This document shows positions 51,174 to 57,817 of a stretch of DNA of 64,000 nucleotides, in pieces; positions within the stretch are counted from its first letter, which is position 1; each line of letters opens with the position of its first letter. The DNA is taken from the NCBI GenBank assembly GCA_963813715.1, contig CAWFAK010000005.1, positions 1,152,001 through 1,216,000 of the forward strand, in the 5' to 3' direction. The stretch is from an uncultured Planctomycetaceae bacterium (GTDB lineage Bacteria; Planctomycetota; Planctomycetia; Planctomycetales; Planctomycetaceae). The position numbers and the translations under genes are program-made. The notes below the pieces were generated by a model, which worked only from the letters and a program-made list of their open reading frames with translations, made no database searches and was not told the origin of the DNA.

Positions 51174-51214
51174 CCCCCCTCTCCCCTTGCGGGAGAGGGG
51201 CCGGGGGTGAGGGG
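51174..51214 (-). repeat. REP family C, empty IS110 target site
   Basis: Reverse complement reads CCCCTCACCCCCGGCCC-CT-CTCCCGCAAGGGGAGAGGGG. Confidence 0.9.
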
Positions 51215-51972
51215 TAGGCTGCAGAGCCCGCGAGCGTCCCGTCTCATGTGCCACTGGCGACCGGGTGGCGGGGGCGCTCCGCCTTGCGGAAGCCCCCGAG
51301 GCCTGGCGGGTTAGATTCCTGGACTCGGGTGATACTCCGCTTTCAACGGAGCACGCATTTCCTTGGCCGTCGTCGAATCGAACCCTCCGGGGCTTCCGCA
51401 GAGCGGAGCGCCCCGGCCACCCGTCCACAGAGCGGCCCAGCCCCGCGTCCGCTCAGTCCCCGTTGATCCGCCCGAAAAGAGCGTCGCGCATCCGGCCGTC
51501 TTTGCCGGCACTGGCCCATTTCGTTCGATACTCGGTGGCCAGCGCGCGACGTTGGACAATCTCGTAGTCGCTCGTCGGCACGGGAAGCCGGGCAAAGGAG
51601 GTCAGGTCCGCTCGAATCGAGTCTTTGCGGGCTCTGGTCATTCGTGGCCGCAATTTGCTGATCAGCGCCCTCGCGGAGTTCCTTCTTGAGCGTTTCCCAA
51701 TCTTCCGCCGACATCGACAGTCCTCTTAATGGCATCTCGCGGAATTGTCCGCGTTTCGAAGGCCGAATCATATCGCCCCCGTTCTACGCCCGCCATGACA
51801 GGGTGGTCGCACGTGGACACCCAGCGCGGCTGCTAACAGACCCGGCGAGCCCGCAGTGTCAGCTGCGGGGTTCTTATCTCGTCTTCTCCTGAGGCCGAAC
51901 GGGCCGAGACAGCTATAGCCCAGGTCGGAGCGCAGCGCAGGCCTGGGAACCCGAGCCACCACCATTTCATTT

Positions 51973-52014
51973 CCCCCCTCGCCCCTTGCGGGAGAGGGGC
52001 CGGGGGGTGAGGGG
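51973..52014 (-). repeat. REP family C, empty IS110 target site
   Basis: Reverse complement reads CCCCTCACCCCCCGGCCC-CT-CTCCCGCAAGGGGCGAGGGG, essentially identical to the joined flanks of IS copy 2. Confidence 0.9.
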
Positions 52015-52110
52015 TCGTCGCTGTAGATGTCCACGTCGCCGAAGCGTAAATTCCGGGGCTTCCGCAGAACGGAGCGCCCAGCCACCCGTCCGCCCGCGTC
52101 AGGAGTGATG

Positions 52111-52335
52111 ATGCCGAAGAAGCCGAGAATCAGGGCCTTAGTCAAGTTCGACTTCGACCAAGTAGCGGTGGAATATCATCGGAAGTATCCGTTCTCCAGC
52201 GAGGACCGGTTCGTTTATTTAGGAGACATTCTGCAAATGGGAGGGCACTCGATCGTCGTGCGGCTGAGCGACGGCCGAGTTTTCTGCGGTTACCACACCG
52301 AGAATTTCGTCGAGCTCAAGGAGGACGAATGCTGA
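52111..52335 (+). CDS. Small hypothetical protein
   Basis: RBS AGGAG at 52101; sequence YPF..FVYLGDILQMGGHSIVV..GYHTENFVEL looks globular. Confidence 0.6.
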   Translation: MPKKPRIRALVKFDFDQVAVEYHRKYPFSSEDRFVYLGDILQMGGHSIVVRLSDGRVFCGYHTENFVELKEDEC

Positions 52336-52565
52336 CCGCAATTTTCGAATGTCGCCGAGCAACACACCTCGCACCCACTACTGCCGCATCGATATCCGCG
52401 CCAAGGAAAGTTGGTCGCTCTGGTTTCCGACGCTGCTTGCAGTCAAGAATTTGCACTAGGTCGCTGGCGTTCGTGAGCGATTTTCCGGAGGGCGGCCGAA
52501 CATAATGCGCTGGTTCTGGGTCAAAGTCTCAGCGGCTCGGCTTCTCTTACAGCAAAGGTGCTGAA

Positions 52566-54941: not shown

Positions 54942-55894
54942 ATGGACGTCGCCTTCAAATCCTTCGTCGGTATCGACATCGCCAAACGGACCCTCGACGT
55001 GCACGTGCTGCCTGAGCGAACGTCGCTCAAGCCGCCAAACGATTCCAAGGGCCGAGGGCAACTCCGAGAGAAGCTTCCTCCTCCCGGAGAGTGTTTGATC
55101 GTCGTGGAAGCGACTGGCGGTTACGAGCGGGCCCTCGTCGCCGAACTGATCGACGCGGGCCATCAGGTTGCGGTCGTCAACCCCCGACAAGTCCGCGACT
55201 TCGCCAAAGCCTGCGGAATCCTCGCCAGAACCGATCGGATCGACGCGGCCGTGCTGGCACGCTTCGGGCAGGCCGTCGTGCCGCGGACCCAGACCAAAAT
55301 CCCGGAAAAACAGCTCGAACTGCAAAACCTCGTCGTCCGCCGCCGGCAGCTCGTCGAGCTGCGAACCGCCGAAATGAACCGCAAAGAAAACGTCGCCAGC
55401 AAGTTTGTTAAAAAGAGCCTTCAGGAGAGCGTCAACGCGCTCACCAAGCAGATCCGACGCTTCGAGAAGCGAATCGCCGCGCTGGTCCAATCGGACGACG
55501 AGTGGAAACAGAAGGCCGAGATTGTTCAAAGCGCCCGGGGATTGGACCGGGCACGAGTGCAACCCTGATCGCCGAGGTCCCCGAGTTGGGGAAGCTGAGT
55601 CGACGAAAAATCTCCGCACTCGTCGGCCTGGCCCCCTTCAATCGCGATAGCGGCGAGTTCCGAGGACGCCGCGCGATCCGCGGCGGCCGAAGTTCGGTGC
55701 GCTGTAGCCTGTACATGGCGACGCTCAGCGCACGACGCTCCAACCCAGTCATCAGAGCCTTCTCGGATCGCTTGAAAGCCCTCGGCAAAAAGCCCAAGGT
55801 CATCATCACCGCCTGCATGCGCAAGCTGCTGGTGATCCTCAACACGATGGTCAAAAACAACACGCACTGGAACCCTGCAATCTCAACCACTTAA
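54942..55894 (+). CDS. IS110 recombinase (DEDD RuvC-like plus Tnp domain); frameshift near 55535
   Basis: [60 protein letters not shown]. Confidence 0.93.
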
Positions 55895-56294
55895 CTCTTG
55901 AAAAGAAACACAGCCGCTCTCCCGTCTTGCCGGCGTCCGCCGCTTCGGCGGTCAGTGCCGGCGCGGACTCAATACGGGGAGAGGGGGGGAGATGTGGATG
56001 GGGTCTTGGGATCCTGGGCCTGCGCTGTGCTCCGACCCAGGCTATAAGCTGTCGCGCCCCGTTGGGGCTGGAGAAGATTGGGACGGCATGGGACGGGACA
56101 CGTTGTTTCATCGAGCGTATCCCGGCAGATTCGACCGCCGTCCCTAATCGATTGCCGCCGACGGATGGTGGGCGTGCGCCCGCCCGCGGCGGATTTGTCC
56201 CACCCTACGGGATCGCGGATGAGCGAAGAGGCCCCCTCACCCCCGGCCCCTTGTATGTTGAAAAAAGGTCAATCTGCGGCATTTGATGGGGACA

Positions 56295-56486
56295 GCTGTG
56301 GGAAAGCTTGCGAAGCGTAGCGGAGCAAGGTTTCCCACAGCGGCCGGCGATAGATCGTCCACCCCGAGGTCCCAGAAGACCGTGGGAGAGCCGGATCGTC
56401 GCCGGTCTCATGAGATCAGCCCGAACAGCCGTCGGAGCCGTCGTGGCGCCAGTCGCCGCTCGAGCTCGCATTCGCAAGGACGGGAC
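56295..56486 (+). ncRNA. Predicted bridge RNA of IS110 copy 2 (ends approximate)
   Basis: Same fold as copy 1; GGGAGAG 56384-56390, ACAGCCG 56425-56431, GCAAG 56474-56478; compensatory stem change. Confidence 0.8.
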
Positions 56487-56492
56487 ATCGTC

Positions 56493-57444
56493 ATGGACGT
56501 CGCCTTCAAATCGTTCGTCGGCATCGATATCGCCAAGCGGACCCTCGATGTGCACGTGCTGCCTGAGCGGAGGTCGCTCAAGCAGCCAAACGATGCGAAA
56601 GGTCGAGGGCAACTCCGAGAGAAACTTCCTTCTCCCGGAGAGTGCTTGATCGTCGTCGAAGCCACTGGTGGTTACGAGCGCGCTCGTCGCCGAACTGCTC
56701 GACGCGGGCCATCAGGTTGCGGTCGTCAACCCTCGACAGGTCCGCGACTTTGCCAAAGCGTGCGGAATCCTCGCCAAAACCGATCGGATCGACGCGGCCG
56801 TGCTGGCACGCTTCGGCCAGGCCGTGGAGCCGCGCACCCAGGCCAAAATCCCGGAAAAACAGCTCGAACTGCAAGACCTCGTGGTCCGGCGCCGGCAGCT
56901 GGTCGAGCTGCGAACCGCCGAAATGAACCGCAAAGAAAACGTTGCCAGCCAGTTCGTGAAAAAGAGTCTCCAAGAGAGCGTCAACGCGCTCAACAAGCAG
57001 ATCCGACGCTTCGAGAAGCGAATCGCCGCGCTGGTCCAATCGGACGACGAGTGGAAACAGAAGGCCGAGATTGTTCAAAGCGCGCCGGGGATTGGACCGG
57101 GCACGAGTGCAACCCTGATCGCCGAGGTCCCCGAGTTGGGGCAGCTGAGTCGACGAAAAATCTCCGCACTCGTCGGCCTGGCCCCCTTCAATCGCGATAG
57201 CGGCGAGTTCCGAGGACGCCGCGCGATCCGCGGCGGCCGAAGTTCGGTGCGCTGTAGCCTGTACATGGCGACGCTCAGCGCACGACGCTCCAACCCAGTC
57301 ATCAGAGCCTTCTCGGATCGCTTGAAAGCCCTCGGCAAAAAGCCCAAGGTCATCATCACCGCCTGCATGCGCAAGCTGCTGGTGATCCTCAACACGATGG
57401 TCAAAAACAAAACGCACTGGAACCCTGCAATCTCAACCACTTAA
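56493..57444 (+). CDS. IS110 recombinase; frameshift near 56680
   Basis: [37 protein letters not shown]. Confidence 0.93.
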
Positions 57445-57817
57445 CTCTTGAAAAGAAACACAGCCGCTCTCCCGCAAGGGGCGAGGGGAAAAGCCTCGGG
57501 GGACGGGACGGGACACGTTGTTTCACCGAGCGTGGCCCGAGGAATTTGGCCCTCACCCATCGGAAGCCGACGGGCGAGGGGGAAGAGACCCAACTCGCCA
57601 AAGGGCGGGAGAGTCAGGTGCTCCGCGCGAAGGGTTGGGTGTTTCGGCTGGTTGGCCAAAGACTGACGTCTGCGGGCCCTTTGCCGCAGATTCCGAACGG
57701 GTAAGACGATGTTTATGAGGTCGGCGCTGTCGGCGGACGTGGCTGATTTTGCGGCCCGACATTCGACACGCGGTCGGTCGCACGGCCGCCTGCGAGCGCG
57801 GCTCGGCCGATCTCACG

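Follow-up and report, generated by a model that had tools for sequence, protein, structure and literature searches.

The insertion sequence (IS) IS621 of Escherichia coli and the elements of the IS1111 subgroup (seekRNA) have the same recombinase family and the same RNA-guided principle; in the IS1111 subgroup the guide RNA comes downstream of the gene for the recombinase. IS621 is inserted at a CT core within the repetitive extragenic palindromes (REPs) of E. coli, with ATCAGGCCTAC as its natural target, and in IS110 elements a promoter is rebuilt across the circle junction (PMC11208160). Publications from 2003-2006 onward describe such elements as targeting REPs (PMC1525189; Choi 2003), and ISPpu9 and ISPpu10 of Pseudomonas putida, ISPsy8 and ISPa11 have been described as multi-copy ISs specific to REPs (PMC1525189). 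Here we analyze a window of 64,000 nucleotides from contig CAWFAK010000005.1 of an uncultured soil Planctomycetaceae bacterium (window, G000:C5:1152001-1216000, where G000 is the source genome), in which two copies of one IS110-family element interrupt a G+C-rich palindromic repeat. The element is very probably a bridge-RNA element of the IS110 family (IS110 subgroup, IS621-like), guided by RNA into the CT of the repeat.

The locus resembles IS621 in its CT core, in the lack of a target duplication and in insertion into a REP. It differs from IS621 in its planctomycete host, in a protein match of E = 3e-42 only, and in its target, CCC-CT-CTCCC, which lies in an unrelated G+C-rich repeat. In contrast to the IS1111 subgroup, the long noncoding end (240 nt) is upstream of the gene here and the right end is only 24 nt. 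ISPpu9 and ISPpu10 are likewise classed as IS110 elements located in REPs, and the target of ISPpu10 has a stem-loop; however, host and repeat differ for ISPpu9, ISPpu10, ISPsy8 and ISPa11 alike, and the stem-loop described for ISPpu10 is a 5′ extension of its target, whereas here it lies to the right of the crossover and includes it. In a literature search for IS110 elements in planctomycete REPs, the one listed of two matching papers is by its title on HuH endonucleases; the supplementary tables of PMC11208160 may list relatives of the element among the IS110 orthologues. REP targeting by IS elements and the bridge-RNA mechanism are already published; what is new is this planctomycete member.

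Interrupted and empty copies of the repeat

Reading of positions 50900-57800 together with pairwise alignment showed that the two copies are direct repeats of one element. The element copies, their cores and the interrupted and empty repeats around them are as follows.

54700-55918, plus strand: IS copy 1, 1219 bp with the CT core at each end counted; pseudogene
56250-57468, plus strand: IS copy 2, 1219 bp with the CT core at each end counted; pseudogene
54700-54701 and 55917-55918, plus strand: left and right CT cores of copy 1
56250-56251 and 57467-57468, plus strand: left and right CT cores of copy 2
54684-54699, plus strand: left repeat half at copy 1, CCCTCACCCCGGCCC, that is box 1 and spacer
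55919-55990, plus strand: right repeat half at copy 1, CTCCCG, long loop and GGGGAGAGGGGGGG; joined to the left half in G002:C9
56233-56249, plus strand: left repeat half at copy 2, CCCTCACCCCCGGCCC
57469-57488, plus strand: right repeat half at copy 2, CTCCCGCAAGGGGCGAGGGG
51172-51214, minus strand: empty repeat of class A (short GCAAG loop), core unbroken at 51191-51211
51973-52014, minus strand: empty repeat of class A, core unbroken at 51990-52011
54221-54268, plus strand: empty repeat, class B variant, CCCCGACTCTCTCCC, inner hairpin, GGGCGAGGGGG; core 54224-54242

Both window copies begin with CT-TGTATGTTGAAAAAAG and finish with GAAACACAGCCG-CT. When the element and one CT are removed, copy 1 leaves CCCCCTCACCCCGGCCC-CT-CTCCCG...GGGGAGAGGGG and copy 2 leaves CCCCCTCACCCCCGGCCC-CT-CTCCCGCAAGGGGCGAGGGG. 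The rebuilt sites have the architecture CCCTCACCCC-spacer-CCCTCTCCC-loop-GGGAGAGGGG, in which CT+CTCCC is the 5′ arm (box 2). The repeat occurs in two forms, class A with the short GCAAG loop and class B with an inner hairpin, the latter often within a longer composite repeat; in the class B variant at 54221-54268 a T replaces the C directly before the CT.

The same pre-insertion state was found in the genome G002, which belongs to the same genus. A syntenic region on G002:C9 matches the right flank of the window at 94%, and when it is aligned to the window with both copies excised, the repeats are unbroken at both window sites with a single CT each; at the copy 2 site the orthologue is identical across the junction. 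These empty orthologous sites confirm, without recourse to the repeat consensus, where the element ends and that a single CT was present before insertion. G002 also contains five full-length close copies (90-95% identity), all five in the same box of the repeat.

Within G000, BLAST detected nine full-length copies on four contigs. All nine have the ends CT-TGTATGTT...ACACAGCCG-CT and are flanked by the CT core on both sides, against a single CT in the empty G002 orthologues, without target duplication. The intact element measures 1220 bp. No terminal inverted repeats were found, as none of the 18 inverted-repeat pairs in the element joins both termini. Eight of the nine copies lie in CTCACCCC-(2-6 nt)-CC-CT-CTCCC, in one constant orientation relative to the repeat, and the flanks past the repeat differ at all nine sites. 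Close pairs of copies occur in the window and on C16 (500666/502562). In addition, the copy L001 (G000:C5:1086648-1087867), whose frame is intact, and L029 (G002:C16), which lacks one base of the right end, are at orthologous sites, and this insertion is therefore common to two species-level genomes.

With the pattern CTCACCCC.{0,8}CTCTCCC, 43 empty repeats were counted against the 8 filled ones, an occupancy of about 16%. Among the 726 genomic CTCTCCC sites obtained after removal of the IS copies in silico, 8 of 51 in the repeat were filled, versus 1 of 675 outside it (one-sided Fisher p = 3e-9; the copies are not guaranteed to be independent events in this and the other occupancy test).

The repeat motif was found in 14 of the 24 relatives searched, with counts from 0 to 204, while a reversed control pattern had no match in any of the 25 genomes (G000 among them). 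It is present in genomes where the search found no copy of the IS (G005, 53; G007, 34; G029, of another family, 148). This indicates that the repeat predates the element, has a wider distribution and did not arise as a by-product of it. As expected of a repeat of the REP or bacterial interspersed mosaic element (BIME) type, it is a short imperfect palindrome with many dispersed copies common to related genomes. The gene of a REP-associated tyrosine transposase (RAYT) would be expected to be flanked by the repeat, but none of the eight PF01797 (Y1_Tnp) genes of the genome, which is about 83% complete, has it within 900 bp; REP is therefore used here as a descriptive label only.

The preliminary description of this stretch had placed both IS copies at the same CT of the repeat, and this agrees with the rebuilt sites, with the unbroken G002 sites and with 8/9 copies in G000 and 5/5 in G002. 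Its element length of 1219 bp with both cores is right for the window copies, the intact form being 1220 bp, and the repeats that it gave as uninterrupted (51174-51214, 51973-52014 and a variant at 54221-54268) do have their cores inside these intervals. The genome-wide inspection of flanks that it proposed gave nine copies with identical ends, of which the ninth refines the claim and does not refute it. The idea of a safe landing site fits the 43 empty copies, intergenic positions and the fact that relatives in which the IS was not found also carry the repeat.

The spacers at 53900-54700, 55919-56249 and 57469-57620 are a mosaic of other dispersed repeats, whose genome-wide counts are 363 for GGGACGGGAC, 48 for GGGACGGGACA[CA]GTTGTTTCA and 59 for GTCCAAAGTCCAA. 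Class B target repeats are usually embedded in a larger composite of such dispersed repeats.

Recombinase, predicted bridge RNA and guides

The recombinase frame of copy 1 is located on the plus strand.

54942-55894, plus strand: recombinase frame of copy 1, 317 aa in the intact form, broken by a −1 frameshift

In copy 1, one G of a run is gone after 55534, and in copy 2 two nucleotides are gone between 56679 and 56680; an intact 317-aa frame is present in three of the nine genomic copies. The protein matches Pfam DEDD_Tnp_IS110 (E = 3.2e-25, 89 bits against a cut-off of 29) and Transposase_20 (PF02371, C-terminal transposase domain; E = 3e-17, 63 bits against a cut-off of 21.3), and both the IS621 transposase 8wt6 and the ISCro4 transposase 9t56 were matched at E = 3e-42. 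D12, E56 and D101 are aligned to acidic positions in the IS621 chain, which we take to be D11, E60 and D105. If the chain numbering is offset by 2 residues, as we infer, D98 and S237 correspond to D102 and S241 of IS621 (chain residue 243 for S241), the residues named as catalytic in IS621 (PMC11208158). The two Pfam domains and the aligned catalytic Asp and Ser are thus common to this protein and IS621 of E. coli (PDB 8wt6).

Gene callers give the recombinase 354-411 aa instead of 317 in other assemblies, and an open reading frame (ORF) of the window, 54147-55568, runs through the left-end RNA region. The longer gene calls presumably start in this open frame.

Near-identical copies of the element are found outside the assembly as well. 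At least half of the sampled words occur in each of 20 runs, which come from 17 studies of soil or rhizosphere, and the element was read in contigs of 4 runs among the 24 listed. Near-identical, frame-intact copies are present in contigs of those runs; the extra G that restores the frame of copy 1 was seen in contigs of three of the four (X1, X16 and X13), and a 1225-nt contig of X13 stops 2-3 nt past both element ends.

The two window copies are 92.9% identical over alignment columns 1-800 and 99.3% identical over columns 801-1223, a mosaic that suggests gene conversion or recombination between IS lineages. The 5′ part of copy 2 resembles a distinct lineage of metagenome loci (L093-L095).

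The noncoding left end of 240 nt upstream of the gene, in contrast to the right end of 24 nt including the CT core, is predicted to encode a structured RNA. The predicted parts and guides are as follows.

54744-54790, plus strand: predicted bridge RNA 5′ stem-loop of copy 1; helix 1 with 16 pairs, 6 of them compensatory; also inverted repeat I1
54791-54856, plus strand: predicted target-binding loop of copy 1, with basal stem, guides, distal hairpin (54817-54830) and GU linker
within 54806-54815, plus strand: putative left target guide of copy 1, GTCCGCCCTC
54833-54839, plus strand: putative right target guide of copy 1, GGGAGAG, with CT at 54840-54841 in the handshake position
56384-56390, plus strand: putative right target guide of copy 2, GGGAGAG
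54868-54933, plus strand: predicted donor-binding loop of copy 1
54874-54880, plus strand: putative left donor guide of copy 1, ACAGCCG, identical to the 7 nt that precede the core at the right end
54919-54927, plus strand: putative right donor guide of copy 1, AUUCGCAAG, gapped complement of the left-end CT+TGTAT

In an alignment of nine left ends from five genomes, RNAalifold gave 63 pairs, 13 of them with compensatory changes. A structure limited to the bridge-RNA stems comprised 56 pairs; 97.6% of its cells were paired, and in 10 pairs both sides had changed. These values were not equaled in any of 500 shuffles, and sliding the partner by 1-3 columns lowered the paired fraction to 30-51%. 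The order of the parts is a 5′ stem-loop and then two modules, each of stem, 5′ guide, hairpin, GU, 3′ guide and stem, and the IS621 bridge RNA is described with the same order and two modules (PMC11208158). The element thus resembles IS621 in its long left end with a 5′ stem-loop, target loop and donor loop, and in the GU linker before the 3′ guide. A sub-threshold Rfam match to sX15 on the opposite strand (E = 0.55) was taken as chance.

The donor guides fit the element's own ends. A 7/7 match between the left donor guide and the right end was obtained in 17 of 20 rows; of the three misses, two arose where the pattern was caught in the wrong place (the alignment shows ACAGCCG) and one, L029, reflects a 1-nt deletion of the right end. 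The right donor guide pairs in a gapped manner, here to CT+TG(T)AT, as in IS621, a comparison made by the IS621 pairing scheme and not by letters (PMC11208158).

The right target guide of this element, GGGAGAG, is fully complementary to CTCTCCC (CT+CTCCC), and among 29 element/site pairs the right guide matches the core plus five nucleotides at 7/7 in 25, 6/7 in 3 and 5/7 in 1, with ten different guides represented. These pairs are distinct ones with a right flank, identical ones having been collapsed, and a recognizable loop was found in 40 of the 80 loci examined. When the guide changes, the flank changes with it. L010 (G004) and the metagenome locus L096 have the guide GGGUGAG and are located at CCCC-CT-CACCCC, which is the other CT of the same repeat. 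A sister clade about 67% identical (G003, G010 and G002:C9) has the same donor ends and the guides CACUAAG or CACCAAG, and its sites read TTSGTGC-CT-TKGTGGT. Further metagenome guides, CACGAAG, CACAGAG, CGCAGAG, CACGGAG and CCCGTAG, each stand beside a matching flank. The right guide is therefore complementary to the right flank and covaries with it, as is expected for the family. It is 7 nt long here versus 4 in IS621 (PMC11208160, PMC11208158).

The sister IS is represented by L023, L012, L031 and L032 (G003), L013 (G010) and L033 (G002:C9), and its target sits in another short repeat, in which CACCAAGG and CTTGGTG words abound.

A candidate promoter can be assembled at the junction of the circularized element.

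55898-55903, plus strand: candidate −35 box TTGAAA at the right end of copy 1, 17 nt upstream of TATGTT (54704-54709) on the circle junction
57448-57453 and 56254-56259, plus strand: the same predicted promoter pair, TTGAAA and TATGTT, in copy 2

By its match to the consensus, TTGAAA-17 nt-TATGTT is predicted to be a junction promoter, and similar −35 and −10 boxes are present in the element ends of relatives. The course of transposition may be pictured as follows. The element would excise as a circle, whose junction would join the right-end −35 box to the left-end −10 box, and the junction promoter would drive a structured bridge RNA, about 220 nt long, from the left end. Of the two loops of this RNA, one would pair with the element's own joined ends, ACAGCCG-CT-TGTAT, and the other with the chromosomal target, the left guide fitting the C-rich spacer only in part; the 317-aa DEDD/serine recombinase would then exchange strands at the CT common to both partners. 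Strand exchange at the shared CT would leave the element flanked by CT, without duplication or inverted repeats, and a 7-nt right guide matching CT+CTCCC of an abundant palindrome would bring the copies to the same CT in the same orientation. The window copies may at most be mobile with recombinase from the three intact copies elsewhere in the genome.

Left target guide and alternative explanations

Several observations weigh against the bridge-RNA reading. First, the left target guide matches the natural targets at only 4-6 of 9 positions, with a register uncertain by ±1. The 5′ side of the loop reads CGUCCGCCCUCA, and with CU as core partner (register −1) it gives 6/9 at most class B sites; at the two window sites, however, it gives 4/9 in register −1 and 5/9 in register 0. 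Among related elements the best register also varies by ±1 nt: register 0 is best for the G003 type (7-8/9) and register +1 for L056, L103, L104 and L105 (6-8/9). Copy 2 and the metagenome loci L093-L095 read UCCACCCCG, without CU.

56358-56366, plus strand: variant left-guide region of copy 2, TCCACCCCG, without CU

The mismatch of the left guide exceeds the single one of IS621, whose natural target differs at one position from the target encoded by its guide loop (PMC11208160). Secondly, one of the nine copies lies outside the repeat: L005 (C16:392260-393479) has the same ends and is inserted at GTCCCGTCCC-CT-CTCCCAGG. This site is 12 bp outside a repeat copy in inverted orientation and has only CCC-CT-CTCCC in common with the others. 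Thirdly, six of the nine copies, both window copies included, are unable to make the recombinase. Fourthly, the left flank of copy 1 is one C longer than the empty G002 orthologue, exactly at the junction: G002 (L042) reads CCCCGG-CCCTCTCCC, that is GGCC before the CT versus GGCCC at 54695-54701 of the window. The extra C may be polymorphic or may have been left by the insertion itself. Finally, an Rfam 15 scan of the region gave no match to a bridge-RNA family, and no circle-junction joint was found among the contigs of the four runs, which, RNA libraries included, cannot show transcription, RNA ends or copy number.

Two readings of the left-guide pairing were rejected. A single register 0 (UCCGCCC+UC), chosen by homology to the G003-type loop, did not hold for the wider set, in which the best register varies; pairing of the ACCCCG variants (copy 2 and L030) with box 1, 3-4 nt from the crossover, gave only low-complexity C-rich matches. 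Five "skip" joints in X1 were likewise discarded as excision products, since they have short sides (24-45 nt) or extra letters; they probably stem from other repeat copies or other organisms.

It is possible, and we hold it as a tentative alternative, that two matches are combined at the site: the right guide would fix the position, the protein would read the hairpin or context of the repeat, and the left guide would be minor in this clade. The 4-6/9 matches of the left guide agree with this, and so does the filling of sites. When only sites with a perfect right side and no fewer than 5/7 left-guide matches (register 0) are counted, 7 of 32 in the repeat were filled versus 0 of 25 outside it (p = 0.013). 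In addition, the stem-loop in the ISPpu10 target has been presented as an extra determinant (preprint 10.64898/2026.03.19.712850). The result hints that repeat context contributes to site choice, but membership of the repeat is confounded with left-flank sequence and the copies are not independent events. Moreover, L005 was inserted where the repeat does not lie on its left, and the 7-8/9 matches of the G003 type argue for a functional left guide in that subfamily. A bolder form, which we consider improbable, is that in the planctomycete clade the left guide is largely dispensable or slipping, that the choice is made by the 7-nt right guide and the repeat hairpin, and that one A-to-U change suffices to hop between the CTs of box 1 and box 2.

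Far less probable is recombination by protein alone, in which the recombinase would read the repeat DNA directly and the structured left end would be a regulatory leader. It could be said in its favor that no RNA was observed in the present data and that the complementarity of the left guide is weak. However, each of ten different 7-nt loop sequences goes with a different right flank, the donor ends being unchanged, and the loop architecture and donor-guide matches parallel those of IS621. Spread by duplication or homologous recombination of repeat-flanked segments, or with the repeat halves as part of the element, is scarcely credible and already largely refuted: the close pairs of copies and the mosaic identity of copies 1 and 2 would be compatible with it, but the flanks outside the repeat differ at 9/9 sites, each window copy has its own empty orthologous site in G002, and the repeat is unbroken 43 times in G000 and present in genomes where the IS was not found.

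Taken together, the element fits every testable feature of the IS110 subgroup except a clean match of the left guide, and RNA-guided insertion of a bridge-RNA element into the CT of the repeat remains very probable.

Neighboring features and meaning for the family

Some further features lie to the left of the IS pair. An Rfam Acido-Lenti-1 RNA motif is found at 53964-54011 (plus strand; 48.7 bits against a gathering score of 37, E = 7e-9), and a second, sub-threshold match at 53777-53821 (minus strand; 20.5 bits); both are intergenic. A 369-aa ORF at 52566-53675 (plus strand) lies between the empty repeats and the IS pair. No match to it was found in the five relatives searched, all matches having started past query position 1277. 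The segment 52500-54699 of the window has 97 matches in G002 alone.

The preliminary description had also stated that IS621 targets REPs at a CT core, which is borne out by PMC11208160. It had overlooked that both window copies are dead, and that the mechanism, as we infer it, lies in a left-end bridge RNA. For annotation this means that both window copies are pseudogenes and that the 240-nt left end is to be taken as an RNA gene, not as an upstream stretch of an ORF.

The finding is of modest importance as a sequence-documented case of natural bridge-RNA targeting outside Proteobacteria, with filled and empty sites in one window and empty orthologous sites in a sister genome. In close relatives, one-letter guide changes go together with a shift to the repeat's other CT. 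The right guide is longer than that of IS621 and left mismatches are apparently tolerated, and an intact copy could therefore aid comparisons in the engineering of bridge recombinases. What remains of interest is that the left guide is loose and that a single letter of the guide switches between two positions within one repeat.

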